Below, piece after piece: positions 15,816 through 56,202 of a stretch of 64,000 nt of DNA. The notes beneath the pieces are model-generated. The model was not told where the DNA came from and ran no database searches. It was given only the letters and a program-made list of their open reading frames with translations. Origin of the DNA: Candidatus Multivoradales bacterium (lineage in GTDB: Bacteria > Acidobacteriota > Thermoanaerobaculia > Multivoradales > J023); the NCBI GenBank assembly GCA_965248925.1, contig CBDFLE010000006.1, forward strand, positions 1,920,001 to 1,984,000. The letters are read 5' to 3'. The translations under genes and the position numbers were made by a program. How positions within the stretch are numbered: the stretch's first letter is position 1; the number at the start of each line of letters is the position of its first letter.

Positions 15816-15831
15816 GCCGCGAATGCTACAC

Positions 15832-26277: not shown

Positions 26278-26423
26278 AGACCCGAGCGACCACCGTCTCG
26301 AGAGTGACTTAGAGGATCCAAGCTACTAGTGGGTTCGACGAGTCATGGACTCTCGGGACCACCGGGGCGGAATTCGAGCAAGTTCGACTCCGCCCCACTT
26401 TCATGCCAATTTTTTCATCTTCG

Positions 26424-26540
26424 TCAACCGGCGTCGTGGATCGGCAGCTCAGTATCGACCGGCGCTCGCAAGCCGCGCATCTTCTTGACCAAGGAGAGCG
26501 CCTCGGCATCGCTATTGATCTCTAGGCGGAGTTCGATGTT
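26424..26540 (-). repeat. Degenerate remnant of the UnbV/E4-TPR gene 3' end
   Basis: Translates NIELRLEINSDAEALSLVKKMRGLRAPVDTELPIHDAG*, versus ELERHLEIDSDDELLSFVKEKRSLQAPVDTDLSFYDSEGS* in 48561.. Confidence 0.8.
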
Positions 26541-26609
26541 GAGCCACCAGCCGCTCGGTTTTTCGCTGAGAGGCGCTCTTCAGAAAAATATGATGTCCGG
26601 AATCCGTGA

Positions 26610-27571
26610 CTATTGCCAGGCAGCTGTGTCCCCGCTTTCAAAGCCATCCAGAAAAATTGGCGTAGCGATCTCGACCACCCCACTAACAAAAGTCAAGTCA
26701 AGCTCATCGATGACCAGCAAACCGCCTTGCTGCGAGGTAAACTCGTTGGCGCCCACTAGAACGGTGTTCGGGGTTGCCGTCAACAGCAAGCGTGAGATTC
26801 CTGGATTGGCAACGACCGGCAGTACCACAACCCCCCAGAAGTAACTCTTCCCCCTGCACTGTGGAGCCAATCGGCAGCGCCGACAGATTGACCACGACAC
26901 CCTGTTTGCGGCCGATACCTCCTTGGTTGTTGTTCACGAACCAATTGCCGTTCTGCGCCCCAGCCGTGAAGTCCACCGTTGGACCAAGATCCGCCGTCGC
27001 CTGATTGAACACCAATGGACATGAAGGTGTTCCGGTCCCATTGTTGTTGTTGGTCAAGTTGACACCGGGATCGGCTAGCCCGGTCAGATCGCCGATGGTG
27101 AATCCTCTGACCGCCAACATATCAGTGGTGATTCCGCCATCGAGAATACCGGTGTCTCCGCTGAGCTCGAGAGTGAAAGTGAGGCTTCGCAAAATGTACG
27201 GAGCGTCTGGGTCCCGTAAGAAGATTGGGACCTGCAACCAAGATCTCGACATGATGGCTTGGGAAACGACCGTTAGATCACCAATTCTGAGCTGGAAATT
27301 AGCTGTGCATCCTGCAAATGCGGTCCGCCCATGAAATCGGCGACTTAGAGCGGCCAACTGACGTGCCCCACTGCGCCTCGATAGCCTGGCCATCGTTGAA
27401 CTCGAAGGTGTGAGCACGGAAGCTCAGGGGCTCGCTCGCCACAGACTGCGCAACCAGCGTGGAGGCGAACACGGTGGCGAACGCGGTGGCGAGCAATGCA
27501 CCGAGAACCAGGGTGGGGACAAGGCTTCTTCTACTGGGAATCGTGCTAGCGAAAGCGTTCGATACTCGCAT
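26610..27571 (-). pseudogene. Secreted protein with C-terminal IFxDGFESGD motif, frameshifted
   Basis: Signal peptide in frame 27299..27571, middle in 26704..27417, end PIFLDGFESGDTAAWQ* in 26610..26900. Confidence 0.65.
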
Positions 27572-27634
27572 CGGCTTGCCTCGAGGGTTAGTGCGCGGCG
27601 CAGCCCAACCCGAGGCACAGCCAGGGAGGGGATG

Positions 27635-30019
27635 CTATTCGTAGCGCAGGGTGGTCATCGGATCCAGGCCGGCGGCGAGGCGAGCCGGCAGGTAGCTCGC
27701 CACCAAGGCCACCAGCAGCAGTAAGACACTGACTGCGGCGGAGGTGAGTGGATCGGTCGAAGCAACGCCAAAGAGCAGGCCGACCAACAGGCGAGCCATG
27801 AAGAACGCGCCGACAAACCCAGCGGCCAAACCCGCCAGAGTCACCAGCAGACCGCGGCTGACCACCAGCCAGAGAACGTCCTGCCGAGCGGCTCCCAAGG
27901 CCATTCGCAAGCCGATCTCGCGGCGGCGTTGATGCACCGGGTAGGACAGCACGCCGTACAGCCCAAGCACCGTCAGACCGAGAGCGAAGGTGGCGAAAGC
28001 TGCCAGCAGCCAGGTACTGAAGCGGGGCTGGCCAAGAGCCTCGGCGACGGTCTGCTCCATGCTCTTGACATCGACCACCGGCAGGCTCGGATCGATCGCC
28101 TGGATGGCATCGGCCACCGGCTTGGCCAGGGCCAGCGGCTCGCTGGCCGTGCGCACCAACAGCTGGTGGCGAATCCATGGTCCTTGCAGGGTGGAGAAGT
28201 AGATCTCGGGTTGAACATCGCTTTCCAGGCCGCGAGTCTTGATGTCGCCGACCACGCCGATAACCCGCCACTTCTCCTGGGAGAAACGGCCGAAAGTGCC
28301 GAGCTCGATCTGGGCTAGCAAGTGCTCGCCGATCGGATCGGCACCGTTGAAGAACAGCCGTGCCCACTCCTGATTGACCAACACCACACCAGGTCGCTGG
28401 CTGTCGTCCTGCTCGGTGAAATCGCGACCGGTGATCAACGGCATGCCGAGGGTGGCGAAGAAACCTGGGCTGACCGGCCGTACCTGGGCGTAGCGTTTGA
28501 AGTCGCCCTCGACCGCCGCATGGCCTTCGATGTCGAATTCGCTGCCGACGCTCATCCCTCTGGCCAGCGGCAACGACACGCTGGTAGCAAACGAAATCAC
28601 TCCTGGGAGATTGCTGATGCGCTCCTCGAGCTGGCGATAAAAGCCAGTTGTGGACTCGATATTGGCCTGCCCCTCGGGCAGGGTCACCAGCAGGGTCAGC
28701 AAATTGGTGGTGCTGAATCCCGCCGGTTCGTTGCTCAGCTTGACCAAGCTGCGCATCAGTAGACCGGCACCGACTAGCAGCACCAAGGTGATCGCCACCT
28801 GCAAGAAAACGAACAGCCGCCGCAGCCACAGGCTACCGCTGGTGCCACGGCCCGCGGCTCGTAGCGCCAAGCCCGGGCTCAGCCGACGCCAACGCAACGC
28901 TGGCGCCAAGCCAAAGATCAGGCCAGACAGCAAAGTCAGACCACAAGCAAAGACTAGAGCCCGCGGATCGAGTCGTGTCTGTTCCAGACTATAAAGCTCG
29001 CTCGGTCCGAAGCGCATCAGCAAGCGCATCGCCACGGCGGCCAACGGCAAGCCGATAGCGCCACCGCAGACACTCAGGATCAGACTGTCGAGAAAAAAGA
29101 AGCGCGTCACCTGCGCGCGGTTGGCGCCCAAAGCTAGCCGCACCGCGACCTCGCCACGACGAGCCGTGGCCCGGGCCAACTGCAACACCGCCACGTTCAG
29201 GCAGGCGATGGCCAGCGCCAGCAGCAACAACACCTGGCGAAAGTCTTTCACCACGCTTTCGCGCAGTGGCACTACCCTGCTCAACAAATCGGTGTTGGTC
29301 TCCGGGTACTGCTCTGCCATGCGCTCCGCGATGACCGTCATTTCCGCCTGAGCTGCGGCTAGCGAGACGCCGTGCCCCAGCCGTCCGATCACTCGCAAAT
29401 ACCGGGTGGCGCGAGGGTAGGACTCCGGGCCGTCGAGGATCGGTCGCCAAGAGTCGGCCGGGTTGGCCAGCGGAAAGCTGAATTCGGCCGGCATCACACC
29501 GAGAACTTCGATCGGCAGACCGTCGATCAGTAGCTTGCGACCGATGATCTCCGGATCGGTGCCATAGCGCCGTTTCCACAACCCAGCGCTGAGGATCACG
29601 GTATCGAGGGTGCCGGAGCCATCGGAGTCGAATCCCCGGCCTAGCTGAGGCTCGGCACCGAGCAAATCGAACATCCCAGCGGTGACCACGGCAGACAGCA
29701 TGCGTTGTGCCTGATCGTTGCCGGTCAGGGTGTATTCCCAGGGATGATAGCCCTCGATAGCTGCGAACGAGGAACTCTGCTCGCGCCAGTCGCGCAGGTC
29801 GGCAAGGGATAGGGGAATGGTGCGCTTCGCCGGACTCGCCCACCACAACACCGACAGGCTGATGGAATCGCTGTAAGGCAGCGACCGCAGCAATGCACTG
29901 TTGACCACCGAGTAGATCGCCGTCGAGGCGCCGATACCCAGCGCCAGGGTGGACACCGTGATCAGCGTGAACGAGGGGTTGCGCAGCAGCCCTCGGCCAG
30001 CGAAACGGAGATCTTGCAA
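27635..30019 (-). CDS. ADOP-type duplicated MacB/FtsX ABC permease (orphan; 5' end possibly frameshifted)
   Basis: [30 protein letters not shown], two 'E(V/I)xxRxALGA' repeats, [10 protein letters not shown] end; no ATPase nearby. Confidence 0.9.
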
Positions 30020-30753
30020 GAAGCTCGTCGAGTTTCTCCCGCCAACATCGGATCAACAATGTTCTGACACGAGATCTCGGCGTAGCTCATGGCACCCCCG
30101 TTGAGAAAACTCCCAGGCAGACGGTCGCAGCTTCCAATAGCCAACTCGACAGTCGTTGTAGAGGAAAGCCTCCGAGACCGCCAAGTTTGCCGCCAGCCGC
30201 ATGACCCTGCCGGTCCACTTTCCGAAAGATGCGGTGCTCTACCTCCTATCCGACGCTATCGATCTCGGCTCCAATCTAGAAGGGGCCAGGCGATTATCAT
30301 CGCACCGGCCCCTGTGGTTGCGGTTGTTGTAGCGGTCACTGGCCGAGCGCGATAAACTTATCGATCACTGCGGCTGACAGTCCGCCGGCCGCACCGAGAC
30401 GTTCACAGGAATCACTTCACCAGCTGCCGACAGAGCAGACACCGGCTCTGGCATCAGAGCGGCCATCAGCTGCGCGGTATCACCCTTCTCCATGGTGAAG
30501 ATGTCGCCCTTGGAAGGTGTGAATGTGACCACGGGTCACGCCATCGAGACCAGTCACCCTACCGAACTGGGTCTCGAGCTGATACGGCACCGCGAACTGA
30601 GCCAGCGCCGGGAAGTCCTGCGGTTGCTCGACATTTCAGCTGCGGAAGCTCTCGATCCAACTCTCTGCGCTGGCCGGGCCTTCACGCATGCTGAACTTGA
30701 GCTCACCGAGTAGCTCGGACTGACCAACGGCCTGCCAGTTGACCACTTCCAAG

Positions 30754-30892
30754 TCGACCCGACGCTTGCAGGCTGCGCTTCTCTTTGACGAAGGAGAGCA
30801 GCTCGTCGTCGCCCTCGATTTGCAAGTGACGCTGGAGCTCCGGGGCGCCGGGGAAGCGTTCCAGGCCGCGGCGCCAGGCGCGGCGCACCTCT
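30754..30892 (-). repeat. Remnant of the UnbV/E4-TPR gene 3' end
   Basis: EVRRAWRRGLERFPGAPELQRHLQIEGDDELLSFVKEKRSLQA aligns with 37448-37585 and 48598-48735. Confidence 0.9.
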
Positions 30893-30937
30893 GGCAAGCT
30901 GCTCGATCCGCTGTTCTGCCGGGAGGGCTTGGAGACC

Positions 30938-32293
30938 TCAGCGGGGGTGGAGGCTTGCTCCGTGGCGCCAGGTAAGTAACTTCGATCGGTGTTTGCGAGC
31001 AAAACTGTCGATCTGGTAGGTCAAGGTGTTTTCACCAGGAGCCGAGTTGTCACAGAAGCTAGCACTGTCACCGGTTGGGACAAAGCCCCTAAACTGCGTC
31101 CGGCCTGCGACCACTGTTAGAGAGCTGAGCTCGGCGCTGGCCAGCAGCTCTTTAGCACCCGCAAAATCCGCAGCCTTGTGTCCCCACTCGGAAGCCTCTT
31201 GAAGCATTGTTTCGACCGCTGAGAAGTTCTTGCTGTCGGCGGCTTGCTGCAGAGCGACGACGAGCGGAGTCTCAGCGCGTATTACTTGCCAGAGGCGCCA
31301 TACTTTCTCGCGGCCATCAGGAGACAGAGCCAGTAGTCTCCCTTGGGAGAGTACAGAGCTGTGTTGGAGGTGCCAGTAGGCCCAATCGAGCAACCGGCGC
31401 AGGCCAGCCTCGCGGTCCTGAAAGATGGCTGTTCCCTCGGAGCGATAGCGCCAACCGCGTGCTCTTGCCAGCCAGCCGCCATCGGCGCCATGGTTGAGAT
31501 CAGCACTTTCCCGCTGTGCTTCAAGGAGCAGCTTGCGGCCTTCCACCGGCGGCCAGATGTGACCTAACGGAATAAGCGCATCGGGCAAGCTCGGCCCCGA
31601 CGCAGCTCCCTGCTCGGGCAACGCTGTCGCGGTTTTTGCAGGCGTCAGGTCCAAGTTCCGAAGCTCAGCGAGCAGCGCTTCAGGAACCTCCGCGCGTAGA
31701 TTCGAGGTCGCCAGGCGGGCGAACTCTGGAACTGCCGCCAGCCGGTCCAGTGCTAGCCGAACTGCGAAGACGAAAGTCTCGCGTACGCCTTCAGAGCGAT
31801 TCGCGACGGTCGTCGTAATAGCGACGGTCGGAGCCAGATTCAAGCGCGATCGCAGCGCTTCCACGGACAGCGAGTCGCTGCGATCGCGCTTGTTCGCCTG
31901 AACGAGGAAACTCGCCGCTGGCGAATCCTCTAAAAGTTGAGTCTGCAGTTGCTCGATGGGTCCGGCGGCCGCCGCGCATCCCGAGGGTGAGGAGTCGACG
32001 ACGAAAACCACCGCGTCCGCGTCCCGCAGCAGGTGCTCGCGCCGCTTGCGGAGAATGCTCTGGCCGGGGACCGATACCACCTGACAGCGGAGAGTTCGGC
32101 CCTCGTACCTTCCTCCGTAGTACTCTAGCCAGTCGAAGTAGAGCGTCCGTCCCTGCGTCTCTTCTGGGGTTTGGACCTCGACTCCAAGGAGTTCCGCCAA
32201 GGCCCGAAGGGTCGTCGTCTTTCCCGCCTGGCTGGCTCCGTCGTAGGCGATCTTCAGGACGTAGCAATCGGTCTCTGTTTCCTTGCTCGACAT
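30938..32293 (-). CDS. MglA-like small GTPase with a C-terminal extension
   Basis: LKIAYDGASQAGKTTT (G1), RTLYFD (G2), VPGQ (G3), NKRD (G4). Confidence 0.85.
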   Translation of the reverse strand: MSSKETETDCYVLKIAYDGASQAGKTTTLRALAELLGVEVQTPEETQGRTLYFDWLEYYGGRYEGRTLRCQVVSVPGQSILRKRREHLLRDADAVVFVVDSSPSGCAAAAGPIEQLQTQLLEDSPAASFLVQANKRDRSDSLSVEALRSRLNLAPTVAITTTVANRSEGVRETFVFAVRLALDRLAAVPEFARLATSNLRAEVPEALLAELRNLDLTPAKTATALPEQGAASGPSLPDALIPLGHIWPPVEGRKLLLEAQRESADLNHGADGGWLARARGWRYRSEGTAIFQDREAGLRRLLDWAYWHLQHSSVLSQGRLLALSPDGREKVWRLWQVIRAETPLVVALQQAADSKNFSAVETMLQEASEWGHKAADFAGAKELLASAELSSLTVVAGRTQFRGFVPTGDSASFCDNSAPGENTLTYQIDSFARKHRSKLLTWRHGASLHPR

Positions 32294-32415
32294 CGTCTGC
32301 TCGGTTGCAACACATGGGACGCTGCTGGGCGTCCCATGTTCTTCTAGAGGCTCTTCAGGATCGTCCGTTTCTTGAACAGAACCTTGGTTCCAAGTCGTCC
32401 CCGATCAAAGGCGGA

Positions 32416-32784
32416 TCAGATAAGTCCTTCGGCGTGCTTGTTGACAATGTTGCGAACAATCGCAAGATTCGAGCCGGCGCTGTCGGCGGCAAGATAAAGG
32501 AAGGCTGAATTGCCTACCATCTTGATTAGATGAAGTTGGTCGCTTAGTGTCAACAACATGTCGTCTAGAGTCGAGTTGAGTTTCAAGGCCTTCATGGTCT
32601 TGAGTTTTTGCTTCACCATTTCGCTGTTGAACGCGCTGGCTGCTGGAAGATCGAAGTCAGGACGAACGCTATGGACAGCCAGGGTCATTCCTGTGTCCAG
32701 ATCGACCAGTGAAACGGCAATGAATCCCGGGACCTCAGTGGCGATGCTTTCGAAAATGGAAATGTAGTCTTTTTCTGAAGCCAT
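32416..32784 (-). CDS. Roadblock/LC7-like small protein
   Basis: VPGFIAVSLVDLDTGMTL...DDMLLTLSDQLHLI...NLAIVR; paralog of the next gene. Confidence 0.75.
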   Translation of the reverse strand: MASEKDYISIFESIATEVPGFIAVSLVDLDTGMTLAVHSVRPDFDLPAASAFNSEMVKQKLKTMKALKLNSTLDDMLLTLSDQLHLIKMVGNSAFLYLAADSAGSNLAIVRNIVNKHAEGLI

Positions 32785-32801
32785 GTATTTCTCCTAGTCG
32801 G

Positions 32802-33167
32802 TCAAAGTACCAAGTCACCCTCAGCGGAGGCCAGTTGGTGCCTAGACATAGCGAGGTTGCTCTTGTTCTTGTCGAGAACCAAGTAGATGAACAGCCCTTC
32901 TTTCTTTTCGATCGGACGGATCAAGTGGTATTGCTTTTGGAGGGTAATGAGGATGTCCTCGATCGAGTCTTTCAGACCAAGCGTGGTCATCGTCTTGCGT
33001 TTGGCACGGACCACTTCGGTGTTGCCAGCAGCCGCGAGCTCCAGGTCAATGACGCCGCCGCCACCCTCGGAACCGAGCGTCATGCCGCTGTTGCTGTCGA
33101 CGATGCAGCTGCCCACGAAGCCGTCGATCTCTGCCAGTTTAGATAGACATTGTTTAATGTCAGCCAT
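32802..33167 (-). CDS. Roadblock/LC7-like small protein
   Basis: IDGFVGSCIVDSNSGM...AAAGNTEVVRAK...IEDILITLQKQYHLIRP; RBS AAGGAG before ATG 33167. Confidence 0.8.
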   Translation of the reverse strand: MADIKQCLSKLAEIDGFVGSCIVDSNSGMTLGSEGGGGVIDLELAAAGNTEVVRAKRKTMTTLGLKDSIEDILITLQKQYHLIRPIEKKEGLFIYLVLDKNKSNLAMSRHQLASAEGDLVL

Positions 33168-33327
33168 TTGCCTCTCCTTCAATGAGTTGGTGTTTCGCCC
33201 GGCAACTATTGCCGATTGCGAAAGTGGAACTGGCTGGGTCTCCCGCGGGGGGTCTCTGTTCTTCACCAGCGCCTCCGCAGGGATTGCATTGAGCCCCAAT
33301 CAAATTTTGCACACCCCACAGCAGTTG

Positions 33328-33344
33328 TGCAGAAGCCGTGCCAA
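33328..33344 (-). promoter_or_regulatory. Putative sigma54 (-24/-12) promoter for the roadblock-roadblock-GTPase operon
   Basis: Minus strand TTGGCACGGCTTCTGCA, one mismatch to TGGCAC-N5-TTGCA; an NtrC-type activator is encoded divergently. Confidence 0.6.
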
Positions 33345-33622
33345 GTCGCGCCAGCGGACCGCCCAGACGCGCTGGCTGTGATCACCTTTCCCAGCTGAAA
33401 CCCATCTGCTGAAGGCCCGAAGGTGCTGGTGGCTTCGCGGCTGTTCTGACCTCTGATGGCTAGCCCGCGAGCATCCAAGCTGCCCTGTCTTTGGCCAAAC
33501 GTCGCAAATTGGGTGACTCGTTTTGCTACAGTAAGACGCTACGCAGCGTCAAGAGTGCCGAAGTGATCGAACCTGCGCCCGCTGAGCGTGCTGGCATCGA
33601 GCTTGCTCGTAATCCGTTCACG

Positions 33623-34780
33623 ATGGCACAGATCCTTATCGTTGAAGACGAGAGCGGGCTGCGAGAATCTCTACTGGAGGGTCTTTCGGTGGCTTTCCCC
33701 GACTCTAGTTTCGGCGCCCATGGCACTGTCGAAGAAGCCTTGGAGGCCATCGAGGGTCAGCAGCCAGAGCTAATTATCAGCGACATCCGGCTCCCGGGTA
33801 AGAGCGGTATCGATTTCTTGTTCATTGCCAAGAACCTCTGGCCGGGCATCCGGTTCATTCTGATCACGGCCTACGCCAACGTTGCAACCTACGCGCAAGC
33901 GAGCGAGTACGAAGCCACTCGACTGCTGAAGAAGCCTTTCGCACTGCACGACCTGGTCAAAGCTGTGCGGGAAGCTCTCCGCAACGGATCTTCGAGCCAA
34001 GGCGAAGACACGTCGATTCTCGAGTTGGTTCAGCTTGCCAATCTGGGGAAGAAGAGCCTGGAGATTCACCTTCGACGAGGCGCGACTCGCGGAGAAATCT
34101 GCCTCGTCAATGGCGATTTGATCCATGCCCGCGCTGGGGGTCAAGAAGGCATCGCAGCGTTCATGGAGATGGTGCGGTGGCAGAGGCGAGATGCCGAGAT
34201 CAGGACTTTGAGGAAGGCCCCCAGGACCACGGTTGAGGAGCCGATTCAATTCCTGGTCCACGAGGCTCTCCGGATCCTCGACGAAAAGGATGGAGATACC
34301 GAGAAACCAACCAGGAGCGTCCCTAGTGAATCTTCATTGCTGTCGGCGAAAGAGCCGCTCCAGGTTTCCTCAGCCCCGAAGCTACCTCTAGCGGCGCAAT
34401 CCGAGGAGACTCTGGCCCAAGCCGGCCTCGATGCCTTGGTTGGGATCGACGGCTACCTCGGCGCCTGCTTGATGAACAGTGAAAGCGGAAGAGTTCTCAG
34501 CGCGCGGAGCGCAGCATCTCTCGACGTCGAAGTTGCCGCGGCATGCAACACCGAGGTGATCCGAGCCGAGAGAGCGACTCTAGTCTCCCTTGGGCTCCAG
34601 GATCGAATTGAGGACATCCTGATCAGCTTGGGAAGGCAGTATCACCTCCTATGCCTCATCGATTCGAATCCGGACCTCGTGCTCTACCTGATTCTAGATC
34701 GCGCCCAAGCGAATCTTGCAGTGGCTCGCTACGAACTCTCCACCCTCGCCAGCGCTCTAGACCTTGGGCGCAACCCATGA
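33623..34780 (+). CDS. Response regulator: receiver + DUF4388-like + C-terminal roadblock-like domain
   Basis: ILIVEDE, DIRLPG, KKPF receiver; GEICLVNGDLIHA; C-terminus IDGYLGAC...NTEVIRA...IEDILISL..QYHLL homologous to 32802..33167. Confidence 0.85.
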   Translation: MAQILIVEDESGLRESLLEGLSVAFPDSSFGAHGTVEEALEAIEGQQPELIISDIRLPGKSGIDFLFIAKNLWPGIRFILITAYANVATYAQASEYEATRLLKKPFALHDLVKAVREALRNGSSSQGEDTSILELVQLANLGKKSLEIHLRRGATRGEICLVNGDLIHARAGGQEGIAAFMEMVRWQRRDAEIRTLRKAPRTTVEEPIQFLVHEALRILDEKDGDTEKPTRSVPSESSLLSAKEPLQVSSAPKLPLAAQSEETLAQAGLDALVGIDGYLGACLMNSESGRVLSARSAASLDVEVAAACNTEVIRAERATLVSLGLQDRIEDILISLGRQYHLLCLIDSNPDLVLYLILDRAQANLAVARYELSTLASALDLGRNP

Positions 34781-34884
34781 GAAGCCTTGGTTGATGAGTT
34801 TCTCTGGCCAATACCCTTTGCCAGATAGACTCACTCGCGTCTCATGGTACAAATGGTAGGGACCAGGCAAGAAGGGGCGGAACC

Positions 34885-35994
34885 ATGAACAGGGCGGTTG
34901 GGGAGAACGGTTTCAAGCAGTGGGAGCTTGCGGTCGATTCCATCAGTGACTTGCTGGTCTTGCTGGACAGCAGCGGCAAGGTAATGCGAGCGAATCGGGC
35001 GGTTGAGCATTGGTCCTTGGTCTCGGTCTTCGAGGTGCAGGGCATGGATGTTCATCGTCTCTTGCATCGGGATTGCGATGATCCATCGTGCTACCTATTG
35101 CGACTTCACCCGGAGAAGAGCCCAACGATCGAAACCGAGCTTCTCGATCCCAAGCTGGGTTGCTGGATCCACATGGCCCTCGAGCCATTCACCGAGGGCG
35201 CAACACCTTACCGTCTACTCACAGTTCGCGATATCACCGAAATTCGCGAGCGGCGAATCCAGGAAGGCCGCCGGACTCGCTTCGAGGCGCTCCACATCGT
35301 CGCTCGCAACCTCGCTCACGAGATTGGCAATCCTCTCGCCGCGATGCAGACGACGACCGAAGTTCTGGCGGCGAACATAGACCGGTTCGAGCCCGCCAAG
35401 GTCAACACCTACCTGGAGAGGATCTTGGAGGGGACCCAGCGGATTCAGACCATCGTCGAGCGGACGATCCGCGACCAACAGTTCACCGACCTGGCGCCCA
35501 AGGTGTTCGATCTCGAAGCCTTCTTGCGCCGCATGTACCGGCTCTTTCAGGACGAGGTCTCGATCCGTGGAGTCCATCTGGAGCTCAAGCCCTTCTCCTC
35601 TCCGGAGCTCTTTGCTTTCGCCGATTCGACGGCAGCCGAGGAAGTGTTGATCAACGTCCTGCGCAACGCCCTCGACGCGACATCAGCTGGCGGGTCGATC
35701 TCTCTCTGTGCTCGCTCAGAGGCAGATCAGGTTGAAATCCTCATCCGCGACACCGGTCGAGGAATGAGCCGGCACCAGATGGCCAACATCTTCCAGCCTT
35801 TCTTTACTACCAAGGCCGAAGGTGCCGGTATCGGGCTCGCTTACTCGAGCTACCTGATGAGAAAGATGGGTGGTACCATCGCGATCGACAGTCAGGTCGG
35901 TGAGGGGACGACCGTGACCGTTCAGCTCCCCGAAGGCAAACCAGAGAATCGAGGGCTGGCCGATGAATCACCGAGACCTTCTCCTCATCGTTGA
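34885..35994 (+). CDS. PAS-domain sensor histidine kinase
   Basis: PAS N-terminus, AHEIGNPL H-box, NVLRNA, DTGRG, FQPFFTTK, GAGIGL. Confidence 0.92.
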   Translation: MNRAVGENGFKQWELAVDSISDLLVLLDSSGKVMRANRAVEHWSLVSVFEVQGMDVHRLLHRDCDDPSCYLLRLHPEKSPTIETELLDPKLGCWIHMALEPFTEGATPYRLLTVRDITEIRERRIQEGRRTRFEALHIVARNLAHEIGNPLAAMQTTTEVLAANIDRFEPAKVNTYLERILEGTQRIQTIVERTIRDQQFTDLAPKVFDLEAFLRRMYRLFQDEVSIRGVHLELKPFSSPELFAFADSTAAEEVLINVLRNALDATSAGGSISLCARSEADQVEILIRDTGRGMSRHQMANIFQPFFTTKAEGAGIGLAYSSYLMRKMGGTIAIDSQVGEGTTVTVQLPEGKPENRGLADESPRPSPHR

Positions 35995-37315
35995 GGACGA
36001 GCCGTTCCTGAGGGAGTCCCTGAGGGATCAGCTAATGGCGGATGGCTACGCTGTGGAGGCCACGGACACCCTGGCCGGAGCGAGGAAACTCTTGCGGGCC
36101 AAGAACCCGGCCCTGATACTGCTCGACCTCTCACTGCCGGACGGATCGGGGCTGAAACTACTTCAAGAGCTCGACCGCGAGCCACTGGCACCTGCGGTCG
36201 TAGTGTTGAGCGCGGATACCACGCTCGATTCTGCCGTGCAAGCGGTTCGCAGCGGTGCCAGCGACTACCTGCCGAAGCCGTTCTCCCTGGAGCTACTGAG
36301 CCACCGGATTCGGCAAGCACTTCAACATCGGGCGGCGAGCCTGGACCGACTGGTAACTCGCCGCCAGGGGACTCTCTCGCGTGCGAGCTCGAAGACGATT
36401 GAGCCAGTATCCGCTGCTATGACCGCGGTTCTGGCAAGAGTTTCCGCGGTGGCGAAACACGATTCGATGCCGGTTTTGGTCTTTGGCGAAACGGGCGTCG
36501 GGAAAGAGTCCATATGTCGCCGCATCCACGAGGAATCCCCCCGTGCGCATGAGCCGTTCATTGCCGTGAATTGTGCCGAACTCGACCGCGGTCTCCTGCG
36601 CTCCGAGTTGTTTGGCCACGAGCGTGGCGCCTTCACCGGCGCCTCAGATCGTCGAGTCGGGCTCTTTGAACTGGCGAGCCGCTGAACCCTGATGCTCGAC
36701 GAGGTCAGCGAGCTGCCTCTCGAGGTGCAAGCGCTCTTTCTAAGAGTCCTCGAAGACGGCACTTTCCGCCGCCTGGGTGGATCGAGAGAGTTCGAAACCC
36801 ATGCCCGAACGATTGCAGTGAGCAATAAGCCGCTCAACGACCTCGCCCAGAGCGGCCGCTTTCGCCAGGATCTCCTTTTTCGCCTGAATACTATTGAGAT
36901 CGTCATTCCGCCGCTGCGGCAGCGATGTGAGGACATTCGCTTGCTGGCCCAGCACTTCTGCCAACGAATGGTCCGCGCCTCGGGTGTCGAGACCCATCTA
37001 ACACCTGAGGCGATCTCTGCGCTGATGGCCTATCCCTGGCCCGGCAACGTTCGTGAGTTGCGCAACGTCATTGAGCGCAGCGTGCTCTTGAGCAAGGGTG
37101 AAGCCTTGACTCCGGAACTCCTCGAGCTACCGAATCGAGCCATTCGCGAGCCGATCACAAGAGAAGCCTCATCCCAGCGTGACCTACCCACGTTGAAGGA
37201 AGTCGAGCGCCGCCATATCACCGCGGTCATGTCCAGTTCAGGGGGCAACCGCACCCATGCGGCGGCGATTCTTGGAATCTCCCGCTCGACGTTGGCCCGA
37301 AAGTTGGACATGTGA
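35963..37315 (+). pseudogene. NtrC-family sigma54 activator with in-frame TGA at 36683-36685
   Basis: Receiver, GETGVGKE, GAFTGA, then ELASR*TLMLDEV in the same frame, WPGNVRELRN, Fis-type HTH. Confidence 0.88.
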
Positions 37316-37365
37316 CCCTACGGGTGTGCATCCCCCGAACACGGTCCGCCGATGAAGTCAGCGAC

Positions 37366-40017
37366 TTAGGGCCCGCGAAGGATGGCTTCGATCCCTATGG
37401 ACGGGAGTCTGCGGGAGGCTTCGCCCCCGTAGAACGACAGATCGGTATCGACCGGCGCTTGCAGGCTGCGCTTCTCTTTGACAAAAGAAAGCAGCTCGTC
37501 GTCGCTGTCGATCTCTAAGTGGCGTTCGAGTTCGTCGGCGCCAGGAAAGCGCCCCAGCCCTCGCCGCCAAGCGCGGCGGGCCTCGTCGTAGCGGCCCGCC
37601 TTGGCATAGGCTTGGCCGAGAGCGACGTAGACTCGCTGCTGGTAGGGCGCCACCACTCCGCTCTGCTCTTGCAGTTCGGCACAGCGTTCCAGGTCGCGAG
37701 CAGCGTCGTCGGAATGACGCAGCGCCCGCGGCCAATGCAGATGGTTCATCCCCCGCGAGTAAAGCGCCAGCCAAGAATCCGGCTGGGCCGCCAGCACCTT
37801 GTCGGCCTCGTCCAGACCGCGCTTGGCCACGCTGCCCTTGCAGACGATCGCCGCCAGCCCGCCGCAGGCCGGGATCTTGTCGACGTAGGCCACCGACAGC
37901 TCGATCCGCCAAGCCGGGTTCTTGGTGGTGTCGGCGCGCTCGGTAAGAAAGGCGATCGCCCGGTCGTGAGCATCGTACTCGGCCGCCAGACGCCGGTAGT
38001 CGCTGGCTTCGCGAGCCTGGTAGACACCTCTCAGCAGGCTCTCAAGTTCTGCCAACTGACCCTCGATCTCAGCCGCCGAGGGCAGCGCCCGCTTGGCTAC
38101 CTGGGTGCCCGGCAAGGGACTCAGGCGCCGCGGCTGGGAGATCTCCAGCTCCCGCCGCTCGGCATAGCTGCCGGGATCCTGGTGCAAAGTGAGTATTTGA
38201 TCGACTGCCACGTCCTCGAAATACTGTAAACCGCCGTCTGGCCAGCGTACTTCCAGCATCTCCACCAGATCCACCGTACCGAGACCAAAATGTAGTCTCG
38301 GCTCGCTCTGCCCCGCGAAACCGTTGCCTCCATCGCGCTCACGCACCAGCACCCCGGCGGCGGTCGCCAGGGTCACCCGCGTGCCGATGCCGTCGCGATT
38401 GACCCCGCTCGACGGATCGGTCACCAGCGCCACCCGCAGCCAATGCGCCCCTGCCGCCGTCTGGCGGTGATCTAGCAAACCATTGCGAAACAGCTGCGGA
38501 GCGTCGCCCTGATTGGCGATGAACAGATCCAGGTCGCCATCGTTGTCATAGTCCACCACCGCGATGCCGCGGCCATCCCGGTCGCTGTCCAGGCCGGTCG
38601 GGCCGGCGTTTTCAGTGAAGGCTAGCAGCCCCTCGTTGCGCCACAGCCGAGTGCGTTCGTAGCCCGAGAACGAGCGGTCGCCGATCGCCGGCCAGTTGCG
38701 GGCGTCGTCGGAATGCTCGCCGGTCACCGTCCACGACGCCAGGTCGTACCAATAGCTGCCCTCGCCGGCACTGATGAAGCCGTTGACCGCCACGATGTCC
38801 AAATCGCCATCGTTGTCGTAGTCGAAGAACTTCGCCCCCCAACCCCAACCGCCATCGTAGGCCCGCGCCTCCAGGCCGACATCGGTGAAGTGGATCTCGC
38901 CCGACTCGTCCGGGCCCTCGTTGTACCAGAGCATGTTGCCCTCTTGCAGGTACTCGGCGGTGGTGATGTTGGAGACGTAGATATCTAGCCAGCCATCGTT
39001 GTTGAAGTCACCAAAGTCGACGTTCATGCCCTTCTTGGTGTCGTAGCCCAGAGCACTCTCGGTGGCGTTGCGCCAGCTGCCCTCGCCGTCTGAAAGGAAG
39101 AGCTGGTCGGGACCGAAATCGTCGGCGGCATAGAGATCGGGCCAGCCGTCGCCGTCCAAATCCGCCGCTCCCACCGCCAGAGTCCAGCCCGGGTCAGCGA
39201 CCCCGTGCTTCTCGGCGACCTCGACAAAGCTGCCGTCCCCCTGCTGCTGGTAGAGGTAGTTGGCGCCGCCGTTGCGGGCGCGCTCGAAGTCTTCGTGCAT
39301 GATCCGGGTCGACCCCAGATGCCACAGATCGACCTCGCGGAAGTAGTTGCCAACGTAGATATCCAAAAGACCATCGCGGTCGAAATCGAGAAAGATCGCC
39401 GCGTTGCCATTCGCCCACTCGGTGCCCGGCTGGCCATCGCGACGCTGGAACACCTCGGCGGTGACCTCACGGAAGGTGCCGTCGCCCTGGTTGCGATATA
39501 GCGAGTCCGTGCCCCAACGCACCAGGTAAAGATCCACCAGACCATCGTTGTCGTAGTCCCCCCACACCGCGTCCATGCTGGTGCCGCGAGCATCGTTGGC
39601 TTGCGCCAAGCCGGCCTGCTCCCCCACCTCGGCGAAGCTGCCGTCGCCCTGGTTGCGATACAGCAGGTTGGGCTCCCCCTTGCGCGACTCGGTGACGAAG
39701 AAATCTTGCCAGCCGTCGCCATCGTAGTCGGCACTGGCCACCGCCGCGCCGACGCTCGCCATCCACGACATGATGTTCGACAACTGAGCGTCCAACACCG
39801 GCCGATGATGGCGGTGGGTAATCCCCGCGCTCAACGCCACGTCGACGAAGAGCGGTTCTTCCGCCTCTGGCGGTAACGACTGCGAGGGCGAGGAGCAGGC
39901 CGCAAACCAGCCTGCCAGCAGCAACAACCCGACGGTCGAAAGTCCAACAGCAGTCACCGACGCGAATTTCTTGAAACAGCCATTCCAAACACTAAGAGTC
40001 ACAAAGCTCTTGCTCAC
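37366..40017 (-). CDS. Lipoprotein CRTAC1/ASPIC-UnbV (enediyne E4-like) fused to a C-terminal TPR domain, copy A
   Basis: GTG start with GGAGG; lipobox-like FAAC; DYDNDG repeats; GWGWGAKFFD; RLHFGLG...EVRWP; TPR-like tail. Confidence 0.88.
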   Translation of the reverse strand: MSKSFVTLSVWNGCFKKFASVTAVGLSTVGLLLLAGWFAACSSPSQSLPPEAEEPLFVDVALSAGITHRHHRPVLDAQLSNIMSWMASVGAAVASADYDGDGWQDFFVTESRKGEPNLLYRNQGDGSFAEVGEQAGLAQANDARGTSMDAVWGDYDNDGLVDLYLVRWGTDSLYRNQGDGTFREVTAEVFQRRDGQPGTEWANGNAAIFLDFDRDGLLDIYVGNYFREVDLWHLGSTRIMHEDFERARNGGANYLYQQQGDGSFVEVAEKHGVADPGWTLAVGAADLDGDGWPDLYAADDFGPDQLFLSDGEGSWRNATESALGYDTKKGMNVDFGDFNNDGWLDIYVSNITTAEYLQEGNMLWYNEGPDESGEIHFTDVGLEARAYDGGWGWGAKFFDYDNDGDLDIVAVNGFISAGEGSYWYDLASWTVTGEHSDDARNWPAIGDRSFSGYERTRLWRNEGLLAFTENAGPTGLDSDRDGRGIAVVDYDNDGDLDLFIANQGDAPQLFRNGLLDHRQTAAGAHWLRVALVTDPSSGVNRDGIGTRVTLATAAGVLVRERDGGNGFAGQSEPRLHFGLGTVDLVEMLEVRWPDGGLQYFEDVAVDQILTLHQDPGSYAERRELEISQPRRLSPLPGTQVAKRALPSAAEIEGQLAELESLLRGVYQAREASDYRRLAAEYDAHDRAIAFLTERADTTKNPAWRIELSVAYVDKIPACGGLAAIVCKGSVAKRGLDEADKVLAAQPDSWLALYSRGMNHLHWPRALRHSDDAARDLERCAELQEQSGVVAPYQQRVYVALGQAYAKAGRYDEARRAWRRGLGRFPGADELERHLEIDSDDELLSFVKEKRSLQAPVDTDLSFYGGEASRRLPSIGIEAILRGP
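37428..39871 (-). repeat. About 2.44 kb near-identical direct repeat of 48578-51021
   Basis: Line-by-line identity at offset 11150 with only a handful of substitutions, mostly near the gene 3' end. Confidence 0.95.
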
Positions 40018-40036
40018 GGACGGCCTCCAGACGAGG

Positions 40037-40995
40037 TTAGGCAGTAGCAGGGAAGGGCAGGGGAACGGCAACATCCGGCAAGAAACATGCCTCGATGCGC
40101 TGTCGCCAGACCTCGAAAGCGGGCAACTCTGCGCTGCCCCGAGGCAGACCGAGCAGCGTTTGAGAGGTCACTTCGGCCGCCTCACCAGCACTCATGCCGC
40201 AGAAGACGCGGCTAGCCTGCTCGGTGTGCTCGGTGACAATGCCCGCCCGTATCCTGGCCTCGGCGGCAAAAGCGGCGCCCTGGGCGAGAGCCGAAGCAAA
40301 GTCCGCCGCCACGGTGCGCAGGGTTTCGAGAGCCACCCGGTCGACGCCGCCGGCATAGCTGGCGGCGAGACCGACTCCAGCCCACAAATCAGCGTGGCGA
40401 GTGTCCGCGAAGGTAGCGATGGTCCGCGGAATTTGCCGCACGTCGGCGCCTTCGACAAACCACAGACTACGCCCCAGGCCCTGGTCGAAGGCCCGCCGAG
40501 CGTAGCCCCGCACCCGCCGAGGAATCCGCTGTGGCCCGTCTACAGAATTTCGCCCATGGAAGAACCCTTGATGAAAGCCATAGCCATCGTAGGCCAGCCA
40601 AACCAGTAGCGGATCGAGCCGCGCCACGTTGCGCTGCAGGCCAAATGGCAGGCGAGCCAACGCCCAGCCAGCCCCGACTTGCACCATGTAAATGTGGGCG
40701 CTACCGCCCCCTTGGCAAAATTCTTCGAAACGCCGTCGTGGCCAAGGGCTCAAGCGATCCACCAAAAAGAGCGACATCGCCGCACCCTCGTAGGCAAAGC
40801 CGCGAAATTCCTCGTCGACTTCGTCAAGCTGGCGGCAGAGGGGAACACTGGCACTTTCTCCAAGCGCCGCGTGATAGCCCTCAAGGAAGGTCAAACCAAC
40901 CCGCTCGATCCGTTCCCAAACCTGGGCATCGCCACCACGAAATCCGCGCCGAGAGAAACGCACCTGATCGGTAGACAGAGACAATAAGCGACGGG

Positions 40996-41008
<13 letters not shown>
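40037..41008 (-). CDS. DUF1702 family protein (enediyne E3/UnbL-like), copy A
   Basis: GFAYEGAAM, HIYMVQVGAGWALAR, DGYGFHQGFF, FDQGLGRSLWF, DLWAGVGLAASYAGG; overlaps the pksE stop. Confidence 0.9.
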
Positions 41009-47010
<6,002 letters not shown>

Positions 47011-47357
47011 CAATCCTCCCGTTCTAGGTGTTAAAAGAACCCAGGCGGAGTCAAATTAGAGGAGTGACTATATACGAATACATCAATTAGCGTTGTTTTT
47101 CCCTACTCTTTTGCTGACCGAAAAAACCACGCTATTTCGCAAGATCGAAGAAGTCAAATAAGCCTCCCAAGAGATATGAGAACCCCCTGCTCCAGCCCAG
47201 CCGACAACAGAGTCGCAATCCAGTCAACCATGAAGTCGACAGGTTGTTCCCCTCTCGGCTCGGACACCGAGCGGGTTTCACCAACGCTTGCCGGATGAGC
47301 TAACAGCACGAGAGCACTTCCTCAAGAACAAAAGAAAAATCATTGCTGGCCGTCTAG

Positions 47358-48230
47358 TTAGGCGGAACTCTCCATCTCAAGTTCCAAACGCTGCGCCAGG
47401 CGTTCGTCGATCAGCAGCGGCAGAGCCATCAACAGTGGGGGATTGAGCAGCCGTGGAGGTTGCAGCACTAAGTGAGGTCTGGCGGTCAATTGGCCCGCTG
47501 CGTCGGGCTCGAAAGGGCCGGCACTGGCCAGCCCACGGATCGCCTCGCTGTGGCGCAGAAAATCGAGCGGCCCTTCAAAGCGGTCCATGCCGGCGGCAAA
47601 AACAAAGAATCGCTCACCCGGAGGAATCGCCAGCTTGAAGTCGCCGATGGCCGAAAGAATGGTGCAAGATCGGGGTCTCGACTGCGGAATCGGTGAGTCG
47701 AACAGGCCGATGAAGATAAATCCCGCCAACGGCTGCTCGGCTTCAATCGTACCTTCGAGCATGGCTACCGTGGTATTCGGCACCTCGGGCTCCACCAACA
47801 TTTGCACTTGTTCGGCATCGGTGGCGTACACCCGGCATAACTGGCGAAACTGGCCCGGCGCCAAACCCACCAGTTGAGTGAATCGGCTACTGAAGGTTCC
47901 CAGGCTGTTGTAGCCGACTTCGAAACAGATATCGAGCACACTCTGCTCGGTGGTCATCAACAACTTCTTTGCTGCTTCCAAACGCAAAGCACCGAGAAAC
48001 TGCATCGGTGGAATTCCGACTAGCTCACGAAAAATGCGATTGAAATAGTAGGGGCTCATGCAAGCCAGGTCAGCCATCTCGTCGAGAGTGACCTCTTCGG
48101 TCAGGTGCTGGTGCATGTGCTTGACGACCCGTTCGATAGCTTGCTGATGACTAGCGAGGGTTTCCTCGTGGGCCACCTGGTGGGAAGGCCACAGCGCCTC
48201 GGCGGTGGTAGCACTGCCAACATTCGGCAT
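47358..48230 (-). CDS. AraC-family transcriptional regulator (N-terminal HTH), likely cluster regulator
   Basis: SPYYFNRIF, LRLEAAKKLL, ICFEVGYNSLGTFSSRFTQLVG; immediately upstream of pksE copy 1. Confidence 0.9.
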   Translation of the reverse strand: MPNVGSATTAEALWPSHQVAHEETLASHQQAIERVVKHMHQHLTEEVTLDEMADLACMSPYYFNRIFRELVGIPPMQFLGALRLEAAKKLLMTTEQSVLDICFEVGYNSLGTFSSRFTQLVGLAPGQFRQLCRVYATDAEQVQMLVEPEVPNTTVAMLEGTIEAEQPLAGFIFIGLFDSPIPQSRPRSCTILSAIGDFKLAIPPGERFFVFAAGMDRFEGPLDFLRHSEAIRGLASAGPFEPDAAGQLTARPHLVLQPPRLLNPPLLMALPLLIDERLAQRLELEMESSA

Positions 48231-48560
48231 CAGAATCAACCTCCACGGTTAAGCAAACTGGTACCCAGAAAGAGCGAGCCAGAGTGCGAATAACAACTCG
48301 AACAGCGATTAATGCATCGATAGGTCTCTATGAGAGTACTGGAGAAATTCTGATTCTCAAAATAGAGATAAATTTCAAGCCTGATAGGTAAAGACTTGGC
48401 GCCCTGGCGCTTCGGCAAGTAATGCCGGGGCCTCTTGGCTTTGAGGAGATCGGGGCGGTGGCGAATTCCGCCCAGCTACGCCGGGGGGCGAGAGGACTAG
48501 GGGACGAAACCCCTCGCTAGATCATGACGTCCCCGGTGGGACGGAGAATCCCCACTCTGG

Positions 48561-51137
48561 TCAGCTGCCTTCGCTGTCGTAGAACGATAGGTCGGTATCG
48601 ACCGGCGCTTGCAGGCTGCGCTTCTCTTTGACAAAAGAAAGCAGCTCGTCGTCGCTGTCGATCTCTAGGTGACGTTCGAGTTCGTCGGCGCCAGGAAAGC
48701 GCCCCAGCCCTCGCCGCCAAGCACGGCGGGCCTCGTCGTAGCGGCCCGCCTTGGCATAGGCCTGGCCGAGAGCGACGTAGACTCGCTGCTGGTAGGGCGC
48801 CACCACTCCGCTCTGCTCTTGCAGTTCGGCACAGCGTTCCAGGTCGCGAGCAGCGTCGTCGGAATGACGCAGCGCCCGCGGCCAATGCAGATGGTTCATC
48901 CCCCGCGAGTAAAGCGCCAGCCAAGAATCCGGCTGGGCCGCCAGCACCTTGTCGGCCTCGTCCAGACCGCGCTTGGCCACGCTGCCCTTGCAGACGATCG
49001 CCGCCAGCCCGCCGCAGGCCGGGATCTTGTCGACGTAGGCCACCGACAGCTCGATCCGCCAAGCCGGGTTCTTGGTGGTGTCGGCGCGCTCGGTAAGAAA
49101 GGCGATCGCCCGGTCGTGAGCATCGTACTCGGCCGCCAGACGCCGGTAGTCGCTGGCTTCGCGAGCCTGGTAGACACCTCTCAGCAGGCTCTCAAGTTCT
49201 GCCAACTGACCCTCGATCTCAGCCGCCGAGGGCAGCGCCCGCTTGGCTACCTGGGTGCCCGGCAAGGGACTCAGGCGCCGCGGCTGGGAGATCTCCAGCT
49301 CCCGCCGCTCGGCATAGCTGCCGGGATCCTGGTGCAAAGTGAGTATTTGATCGACTGCCACGTCCTCGAAATACTGTAAACCGCCGTCTGGCCAGCGTAC
49401 TTCCAGCATCTCCACCAGATCCACCGTACCGAGACCAAAATGTAGTCTCGGCTCGCTCTGCCCCGCGAAACCGTTGCCTCCATCGCGCTCACGCACCAGC
49501 ACCCCGGCCGCGGTCGCCAGGGTCACCCGCGTGCCGATGCCGTCGCGATTGACCCCGCTCGACGGATCGGTCACCAGCGCCACCCGCAGCCAATGCGCCC
49601 CTGCCGCCGTCTGGCGGTGATCTAGCAAACCATTGCGAAACAGCTGCGGAGCGTCGCCCTGATTGGCGATGAACAGATCCAGGTCGCCATCGTTGTCATA
49701 GTCCACCACCGCGATGCCGCGGCCATCCCGGTCGCTGTCCAGGCCGGTCGGGCCGGCGTTTTCAGTGAAGGCTAGCAGCCCCTCGTTGCGCCACAGCCGA
49801 GTGCGTTCGTAGCCCGAGAACGAGCGGTCGCCGATCGCCGGCCAGTTGCGGGCGTCGTCGGAATGCTCGCCGGTCACCGTCCACGACGCCAGGTCGTACC
49901 AATAGCTGCCCTCGCCGGCACTGATGAAGCCGTTGACCGCCACGATGTCCAAATCGCCATCGTTGTCGTAGTCGAAGAACTTCGCCCCCCAACCCCAACC
50001 GCCATCGTAGGCCCGCGCCTCCAGGCCGACATCGGTGAAGTGGATCTCGCCCGACTCGTCCGGGCCCTCGTTGTACCAGAGCATGTTGCCCTCTTGCAGG
50101 TACTCGGCGGTGGTGATGTTGGAGACGTAGATATCTAGCCAGCCATCGTTGTTGAAGTCACCAAAGTCGACGTTCATGCCCTTCTTGGTGTCGTAGCCCA
50201 GAGCACTCTCGGTGGCGTTGCGCCAGCTGCCCTCGCCGTCTGAAAGGAAGAGCTGGTCGGGACCGAAATCGTCGGCGGCATAGAGATCGGGCCAGCCGTC
50301 GCCGTCCAAATCCGCCGCTCCCACCGCCAGAGTCCAGCCCGGGTCAGCGACCCCGTGCTTCTCGGCGACCTCGACAAAGCTGCCGTCCCCCTGCTGCTGG
50401 TAGAGGTAGTTGGCGCCGCCGTTGCGGGCGCGCTCGAAGTCTTCGTGCATGATCCGGGTCGACCCCAGATGCCACAGATCGACCTCGCGGAAGTAGTTGC
50501 CAACGTAGATATCCAAAAGACCATCGCGGTCGAAATCGAGAAAGATCGCCGCGTTGCCATTCGCCCACTCGGTGCCCGGCTGGCCATCGCGACGCTGGAA
50601 CACCTCGGCGGTGACCTCACGGAAGGTGCCGTCGCCCTGGTTGCGATATAGCGAGTCCGTGCCCCAACGCACCAGGTAAAGATCCACCAGACCATCGTTG
50701 TCGTAGTCCCCCCACACCGCGTCCATGCTGGTGCCGCGAGCATCGTTGGCTTGCGCCAAGCCGGCCTGCTCCCCCACCTCGGCGAAGCTGCCGTCGCCCT
50801 GGTTGCGATACAGCAGGTTGGGCTCCCCCTTGCGCGACTCGGTGACGAAGAAATCTTGCCAGCCGTCGCCATCGTAGTCGGCACTGGCCACCGCCGCGCC
50901 GACGCTCGCCATCCACGACATGATGTTCGACAACTGAGCGTCCAACACCGGCCGATGATGGCGGTGGGTAATCCCCGCGCTCAACGCCACGTCGACGAAG
51001 AGCGGTTCTTCCGCCTCTGGCAGCCCTGAATGGGCTTCCTCGGCGCAACCACCGAGCACGACGACCAGAGCGACGGCCAACAGCCCGACGAGCAACACAA
51101 GACTCGCGACGGCGAAATGGAGGGGGGCAGTCTTCAA
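48561..51137 (-). CDS. Lipoprotein CRTAC1/ASPIC-UnbV (E4-like)-TPR fusion, copy B
   Basis: Mature region identical to copy A; different signal peptide ending LGGC; TTG start with GGAGA inferred. Confidence 0.88.
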   Translation of the reverse strand: MKTAPLHFAVASLVLLVGLLAVALVVVLGGCAEEAHSGLPEAEEPLFVDVALSAGITHRHHRPVLDAQLSNIMSWMASVGAAVASADYDGDGWQDFFVTESRKGEPNLLYRNQGDGSFAEVGEQAGLAQANDARGTSMDAVWGDYDNDGLVDLYLVRWGTDSLYRNQGDGTFREVTAEVFQRRDGQPGTEWANGNAAIFLDFDRDGLLDIYVGNYFREVDLWHLGSTRIMHEDFERARNGGANYLYQQQGDGSFVEVAEKHGVADPGWTLAVGAADLDGDGWPDLYAADDFGPDQLFLSDGEGSWRNATESALGYDTKKGMNVDFGDFNNDGWLDIYVSNITTAEYLQEGNMLWYNEGPDESGEIHFTDVGLEARAYDGGWGWGAKFFDYDNDGDLDIVAVNGFISAGEGSYWYDLASWTVTGEHSDDARNWPAIGDRSFSGYERTRLWRNEGLLAFTENAGPTGLDSDRDGRGIAVVDYDNDGDLDLFIANQGDAPQLFRNGLLDHRQTAAGAHWLRVALVTDPSSGVNRDGIGTRVTLATAAGVLVRERDGGNGFAGQSEPRLHFGLGTVDLVEMLEVRWPDGGLQYFEDVAVDQILTLHQDPGSYAERRELEISQPRRLSPLPGTQVAKRALPSAAEIEGQLAELESLLRGVYQAREASDYRRLAAEYDAHDRAIAFLTERADTTKNPAWRIELSVAYVDKIPACGGLAAIVCKGSVAKRGLDEADKVLAAQPDSWLALYSRGMNHLHWPRALRHSDDAARDLERCAELQEQSGVVAPYQQRVYVALGQAYAKAGRYDEARRAWRRGLGRFPGADELERHLEIDSDDELLSFVKEKRSLQAPVDTDLSFYDSEGS

Positions 51138-51408
51138 GGTCGGTCTCCCGATTGCACCGCCACTGTGGCCTGGCGGTAAGTAGTCGCTAGGGTAGCCGCG
51201 GCTGGGCCTCTGCGGGCCAAGCCGAGACCACCTACTGAGTTGCTCTACTTGAAAAGGGAGTGTCGCCAGACGATCTTTATCCACCACCTACCGGCAATTT
51301 CCCCCCATCGGCGACAAAAATCCAAGACAATGACTCCGACTAGAACAAGGACTCCCTCGATCCTGGGAATCCGATGTTCAAGAACCTAGCGCTTGGGAAC
51401 TCAATACC

Positions 51409-56190: not shown

Positions 56191-56202
56191 CTGAACTCCG
56201 GC

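Follow-up and report, generated by a model that had tools for sequence, protein, structure and literature searches.

Displacement of gene 3' ends is known from toxin loci and prophages. In C-terminal displacement at rhs loci (Jackson et al. 2009, PMC2935791), fragments that vary in length lie on the same strand downstream of an intact gene and the genes in between are carried along; displacement via circles with a variable core length is described, with no integrase and with a single circle crossover proposed. According to Kirchberger et al. 2017 (PMC5361080), the type VI secretion (T6SS) arrays of Vibrio cholerae were built by homology-facilitated illegitimate recombination, that is, by serial insertion at one site through a homologous anchor, with older material shifted downstream and no evidence of an integrase. 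Prophage e14 of E. coli is inserted between the intact end of icd and an orphan 3' fragment, icdC, the differences being mostly synonymous, and its excision recombines these two ends (PMC13626634). The DNA analysed here ("the window") is a 64,000-nucleotide (nt) stretch of Candidatus Multivoradales bacterium contig CBDFLE010000006.1 (GCA_965248925.1), positions 1,920,001-1,984,000, in which the same kind of displacement looks to have affected a biosynthetic gene with no integrase nearby. This gene, E4-TPR (hereafter E4), belongs to an enediyne-type polyketide synthase (PKS) cluster; copies of its 3' end separate three blocks of other genes (i, ii and iii, from left to right). The repeat structure is real and well supported, and the insertion history is partly supported.

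Repeats were detected by self-blastn of the window and their significance was evaluated against 300 dinucleotide shuffles of positions 25000-37300. Minus-strand copies of the E4 3' end were found at all four places given by an earlier, sequence-only reading, which counted four tails; two are short tails, but those from 37428 and 48578 onwards are full genes. The resident gene, E4B (48561-51287, minus strand; Pfam), probably has its true start near 51150, and its best outside homologue is at about 65-68% identity. The other full-length gene, E4A (37366-40074, minus strand; FG-GAP, UnbV_ASPIC and TPR in Pfam), has an N-terminus of its own and, by read-through, a short extension at the C-terminus. 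The farthest orphan end (26433-26540, minus strand) comprises 36 codons and an in-frame stop in codon analysis and is followed by a GC hairpin; its positions 26433-26536 are 77% identical to 48576-48679 of E4B, with 56% amino acid (aa) identity. The second orphan piece (30754-30891, minus strand) comprises 43 codons without a stop and is 80% identical to E4B over 138 nt, with 84% aa identity. Local alignment scores against the last 300 nt of E4B were 89 and 134, respectively, against a shuffle mean of 26.6 (sd 2.7) and maximum of 37, and the similarity claimed from 26424 onwards thus withstood shuffling.

Protein comparisons support the earlier claim that both tails derive from the window's own E4 lineage: their aa identity to any of 163 outside homologues reached at most 60% (30754) and 44% (26433), well short of the values for E4B. 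A functional protein nearer than E4B to either tail was sought among these homologues, and none was found. Codon comparisons, based on small samples of 43 (30754) and 36 codons (26433), gave the two tails distinct profiles. For the 30754 tail, a synonymous divergence (dS) of 1.02 from E4B with a nonsynonymous divergence (dN) of 0.09, and a concentration of the changes at third positions (18 of 26; p 2e-6), would mean that this piece diverged inside a gene that still worked and that little decay has followed, and it is best read as a divergent, barely decayed allele. The 26433 tail (dS 0.49, dN 0.26, omega 0.52) has the pattern of a long-dead copy and would be the oldest orphan end. The proposal that divergence grows with distance from E4 stood for aa sequence and dN (0.26 > 0.09 > 0; bootstrap probability of 0.993 that the proportion of nonsynonymous differences, pN, is higher in the farthest tail than in the nearer one; Fisher p 0.029), so that the order of tail death fits the model of the sequence-only reading, but beyond E4A it failed for nucleotide identity (80% versus 77%) and dS (1.0 versus 0.5).

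Integrase or recombinase families were not detected in the window, either among the 44 main open reading frames (ORFs) and 95 mostly intergenic frames scanned for gene families (Pfam, NCBIfam) or among the 17 ORFs compared with PHROGs, in agreement with the earlier remark that none was visible. Insertion sequence (IS) transposase pieces were the only mobile-element matches, all of them outside the E4 insertion region. The 5' edges of the two tails lie 54 nt apart in E4 and have no 6- or 7-mer in common, which fits variable crossovers. A 7-mer near three joints was considered as a shared att motif and rejected, as it was not enriched (5 versus 3.4 +/- 1.6). A duplicated 3' target end brackets the inserts as it does at icd. 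Prophage e14, however, carries an integrase and uses a fixed site, and the window showed neither an integrase nor, at E4, a constant crossover or att core.

The signature is not specific to E4, because the 3' end of psuG is duplicated likewise. An orphan copy of it (10870-10949, minus strand) is 90% identical over 80 columns to 14860-14937 and is still followed by tRNA-Sec (10728-10827), the only RNA element found in the window. Between the two psuG ends, about 3.9 kb of cargo comprise a broken regulator (11047-12700), an ORF of 498 aa and, adjoining the intact psuG end, the remnant of an rve_3-type transposase. A codon test of the psuG tail was invalid, its frame being shifted by a 2-nt gap. 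With psuG included, all three orphan fragments of genes in the window (3/3) are downstream, same-strand 3' ends (rough joint chance 4e-5), and tblastn found no 5' or internal E4 remnant in the window. A background tally of orphan 3' ends (1,256 crude ORFs, 80 loci) was left unused, as tandem paralogues and gene-calling misses dominated it.

These data bear on the possibility that the blocks are site-specific islands of the e14/icd type, each supplying a replacement 3' end, with an integrase since lost or acting in trans. The neighbourhood of E4 varies in most of the related loci, which is unusual for an integrase target, and such islands would leave the 2.45-kb repeat described below unexplained. 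The lack of any integrase or remnant in the window, the differing tail edges without a shared core and the occurrence of the signature at two different genes also speak against them. In their favour, the psuG duplication borders on tRNA-Sec and on a region rich in IS elements, and the tails are short (80-138 nt), with a synonymous-rich divergence like that of icd and icdC (PMC13626634). On balance we consider such islands unlikely.

Another possible explanation is that each block arrived with a complete E4 by tandem gain, the downstream copies being deleted later from the 5' side. Block iii does contain a second, full-length E4 whose N-terminus is its own. The 30754 tail, which begins 47 nt past a GTPase stop codon, ends about 10 codons short of the E4 stop codon and is therefore truncated at both sides. 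The cargo is decaying as well (a sigma-54 regulator with an in-frame stop, a broken secreted gene), and the dS and omega near 0.5 of the 26433 tail are those of a same-lineage duplicate with one dead copy. Nevertheless, all three orphans, psuG included, are 3' ends, and the window has no 5' or internal E4 piece; moreover, the 30754 piece has barely decayed although about 95% of the gene is gone. This scenario is rather doubtful, although later erosion may have occurred at the tail edges.

Block iii is an 11,150-bp unit bounded by repeats. Besides E4A, it contains pksE1 and E3A (40037-47013, minus strand; pksE1 at 40996-47013, E3A at 40037-41008) and an AraC-family regulator (47358-48239, minus strand), and a second set, mmpL, paralogs 2 and 3, pksE2 and E3B, lies on the plus strand beyond E4B (51409-63196; Pfam). 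The two enediyne-type PKS genes (40996-47013 and 56236-62178) are both intact and inverted relative to each other. Identity between the sets is 55% (aa) for pksE1 and pksE2 and 56% (aa) for E3A and E3B. A quick tree built from 60 of the 120 E3 hits places E3A with its relatives P0123 and P0124 (89% and 74% identity; SH-aLRT 99) and E3B with P0166 (SH-aLRT 100). These separate positions, together with the 55-56% identity, mean that the two cassettes are of separate descent. In seven pairings of E3 and E4 homologues, bearing on which of the cassettes E4 goes with, five were nearer E3A, by small margins (0.7-6.8 points); a codon score of pksE1 versus pksE2 was discarded because it follows strand. 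A homologue of the block iii araC (54%) occurs within a related cluster (locus L010) that holds together pksE, E3, a paralog, araC, mmpL, E4, mmpL and a paralog, so that araC is native to this cluster type. Block iii, which had been described as cargo, is indeed repeat-bounded, but its content is cluster-type DNA, and it is a separately derived cluster module rather than unrelated cargo.

The arms of the repeat, 37419-39871 (left, in E4A) and 48569-51021 (right, in E4B), lie 11,150 bp apart and are identical at 2,443 of 2,453 nt. Outside this tract the N-termini are unrelated to each other, each with a hydrophobic stretch ending in Cys that we take by eye to be a lipoprotein signal. Nine of the 10 differences fall in the last 195 nt (Fisher p 1e-9), leaving one in the remaining 2,258 nt, and the last 70 codons hold six synonymous and no nonsynonymous differences (dS 0.13, dN 0). 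The shared tract has a sharp 5' edge and a graded 3' edge. This identity points to recurrent gene conversion, and the layered differences suggest more than one round of homogenisation. Near-identical bodies with divergent edges and neighbours are also known from concerted evolution after duplicative transfer; here the copies agree at 99.6% over a bounded tract, whereas pksE and E3 reach 55-56% and outside E4 homologues about 65%. Since the partner genes are of separate descent, the E4 pair would need later homogenisation, and its identity cannot date block iii. The GC content at third codon positions (GC3) of the E4 body, 0.80, is close to that of mmpL and UnbV and exceeds that of its same-strand operon mates (0.65-0.70, with pksE1 at 0.70 and E3A at 0.65; p about 1e-5 or lower), a weak hint that the resident copy overwrote the incoming E4.

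Collapse of more divergent paralogues during assembly or polishing would also yield a 99.6% identical pair, the short tails alone then being biological. The onset of the identical tract is sharp and coincides with that of homology, paralog 1 carries a homopolymer frameshift, and the 5.2-Mb contig probably derives from long reads. Long reads, however, normally extend across a repeat of 2.45 kb; neither of the 6-kb PKS genes nor either E4 gene is broken, and the differences are patterned, with only synonymous changes in the last 70 codons and a single internal one. We regard such a collapse as highly improbable.

If the two arms recombined by a single crossover, one E4 would stay behind and a circle carrying araC, pksE1, E3A and a complete E4 would be freed. 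Amplifiable units likewise consist of a module between long direct repeats; in contrast to these, the E4 repeat belongs to the pathway that it brackets, and the excised circle would equal a complete regulator-PKS-E3-E4 operon.

Related loci were drawn from 80 of 555 confirmed stretches of a genome scan, on which all loci counts rest. A full E4 at 53-63% identity was present in 11 listed loci (L001-L008, L010, L016 and L020), and its neighbourhood varied across most listed loci. In two of the 11, L005 (Acidobacteriota) and L006 (Phycisphaerae), a UnbV-TPR homologue (47-48%) on the opposite strand ends within about 20 nt of E4. The sequence-only reading had looked to relatives for an empty locus with paralog 1 adjacent to E4; the convergent adjacency of UnbV-TPR and E4 is that predicted arrangement minus paralog 1 and, in these distant relatives, supports the empty site. 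Orthologues of the cargo of blocks i and ii were not found in 40 listed loci, where the only similar gene was a generic sigma-54 regulator (31-38%) upstream in L003. The insertion hotspot was not seen in relatives, with an orphan tail at none of 17 related E4 loci, and its signature, shared by psuG, is not specific to E4. It is worth noting that in L010 mmpL paralogues (68% nt identity) lie on both sides of E4, at 7344-9824 and 12584-14938. In L002, a 50-nt direct repeat (12579-12627 and 13398-13446, 86%) begins about 40 nt past the E4 stop and is followed by methyltransferase, ParB and PRTase-CE genes, possibly an island that sits at the end of E4 in a different lineage.

Taken together, we hold with moderate confidence that integrase-free, homology-anchored serial insertion occurred at E4 by host recombination, followed by conversion between full copies; the order of events, the donors, the recombination route, the conversion and the excision are all inferred. 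The ancestral cluster would have comprised a thioesterase, UnbV-TPR, paralog 1, a convergent E4, mmpL, the other paralogs, pksE2 and E3B, and would have been split at the 3' end of E4 by three or more insertions, through host recombination with no dedicated integrase. In each, incoming DNA with a related E4 3' segment and its downstream genes would pair with the resident E4, either by single crossover of a circle or by a homologous anchor with an illegitimate far end, the gene being restored by the incoming end and the old end displaced downstream. The 26433 tail would have been displaced first and then have decayed; the 30754 tail, displaced later, would retain a divergence rich in synonymous changes, as in an allele that works. 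Block iii would have delivered a second, separately derived araC-pksE1-E3A-E4 module, whose E4 kept its own N-terminus while repeated recombination homogenised its body with the resident gene. The 2.45-kb direct repeats should permit RecA excision or amplification of the 11,150 bp.

Several observations weigh against this history. No orphan tail was found at any of 17 related E4 loci, 15 of them with at least 4.8 kb of downstream sequence, where only two 25-nt matches occurred; protein searches returned no E4 homologue above about 68%, and neither a true empty site nor an intermediate was observed. The dS of the farthest tail is not above that of the nearer one (P 0.095; 0.64 versus 0.59 on 25 shared codons). 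As the 30754 piece is cut at both sides, later deletion must have reshaped its edges. Unrelated minus-strand genes such as DUF1800 also have a GC3 near 0.70, which leaves the foreignness of pksE1 unproven by codon usage. Finally, the rhs model requires very high identity (PMC2935791), whereas that of the 30754 tail is no more than 80%, and homology-facilitated illegitimate recombination is said to be rare (PMC5361080).

The E4 locus would work like rhs and T6SS displacement, yet it is not a member of either class, because toxin tips and immunity genes are lacking. What it shares with rhs, maf and T6SS loci are variable same-strand orphan fragments without an integrase. An rhs locus displaces a conserved core together with a non-homologous toxin tip, and its cores are near-identical (PMC2935791), whereas the tails here are homologous ends (77-80% nt identity) of a biosynthetic gene of lipoprotein type, and what is newly brought in is the downstream cargo of permease, signalling and PKS genes, a whole PKS module included. 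The retained pieces at the V. cholerae T6SS loci are selected immunity genes, with intermediates in many strains (PMC5361080), unlike the dead gene ends at E4.

The content of block i, given earlier as a secreted pseudogene and a permease, also includes a truncated second gene and an unassigned fragment. The decayed secreted protein gene (26610-27300, minus strand) is frameshifted, without a signal peptide, and has an FxDGFESG-type C-terminus; it has 36 representative homologues (best 59%), and 35 of the 36 alignments start at query residue 25-53, mostly just past the N-terminal signal region of the homologues. Next to it, 27304-27351 (minus strand) is a 48-nt copy of the flank after the E4A stop (81% to 37325-37372; score 51, maximum 36 in 300 shuffles). 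It sits at the join of two broken genes and may record a further, nested insertion. The second of these (27352-27571, minus strand) is a truncated N-terminus with a signal-peptide-like stretch and no Pfam match; an alpha/beta-hydrolase assignment was a weak lead below useful thresholds (Atlas best 0.79; Hydrolase_4 and DLH 19% each). The intact ADOP family duplicated permease (27635-30019, minus strand; TIGR03434, 836 bits, cut-off 622) belongs to an acidobacterial family and points to Acidobacteriota. Between it and the 30754 tail, 30020-30750 holds about 700 nt of broken, coding-looking frames without a Pfam match.

Block ii has a minus-strand part (30938-33176) with a small GTPase (Pfam Arf, TIGR00231) and two small proteins, presumably roadblock-like, without a family match in Pfam, and a plus-strand part (33491-37315; Pfam) with a receiver-DUF4388 protein, a PAS histidine kinase and a sigma-54 response regulator. 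The latter gene (35963-37315) is interrupted by an in-frame stop at 36683-36685. Both broken cargo regulators (11047-12700 and 35963-37315) have in-frame stops, not frameshifts, which suggests true decay over read errors.

In the left part of the window, 21-nt perfect inverted repeats at 3113-7696 surround DUF4372 and DDE_Tnp_1 pieces split by IS21-type istA/istB, an IS within an IS. The region 7772-10629 (GC about 0.53-0.54), a possible defence island that lies a little beyond the 3' end of tRNA-Sec, encodes an AAA ATPase (AAA_15/AAA_21) and, in a weakly matching frame, an AbiEii-like nucleotidyltransferase.

The cluster itself is of the enediyne type, with pksE, a thioesterase, E3 (DUF1702) and E4 (ASPIC/UnbV) all present in Pfam and homologues named 'enediyne biosynthesis protein E3/E4' in their sources; the pksE label is our assumption from the domain order. 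E5 (UnbU) was not recognised among the 44 ORFs scanned, no search aimed at it having been made, and the cluster may continue beyond the window end. The thioesterase (21204-21638, plus strand; hotdog/4HBT family, Pfam 4HBT_2), which we take to have an E10-type role, is the only one seen in the window for either pksE, 19 kb and 35 kb from the two PKS genes. It is followed by a TPR/FG-GAP protein of UnbV type (21635-24997, plus strand; Pfam TPR, FG-GAP_3), the left anchor of the presumed ancestral cluster, and by paralog 1 (25376-26277, plus strand), whose two frames match paralogs 2 and 3 at 34-45% in tblastn and which is split by a frameshift at a C5 run, either real or a sequencing error. GC3 in the mmpL-to-E3B part is 0.75-0.81, like that of the thioesterase, UnbV, paralog 1 and E4. 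The secreted family of these paralogs has no Pfam or NCBIfam match, with three copies here (25376-26277, 53892-54881 and 55255-56190) and two in the L010 cluster (5002-6228 and 14964-15941).

Enediyne PKS (KS) domains outside Actinobacteria have already been reported (PMC10308959), and neither two-cassette enediyne clusters nor E4-anchored insertion was reported in the literature searched, which lay mostly outside subscription journals. At its most speculative, and with little probability in our view, E4 could be the recombinase-free attachment site of a mobile biosynthetic module, the 11,150-bp circle, excised through RecA, re-entering any related E4, in an acidobacterial lineage that assembles and reshuffles enediyne-type clusters and other loci such as psuG by general, integrase-free 3' replacement. 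The locus would document, for an enediyne-type cluster outside Actinobacteria, both the gain of a divergent second PKS cassette and the separation from its thioesterase, with the 2.45-kb repeat predicting both an 11,150-bp circle and an empty site. A class of process already known, displacement-type accretion at toxin loci, would thereby be extended to a new context, a biosynthetic gene.

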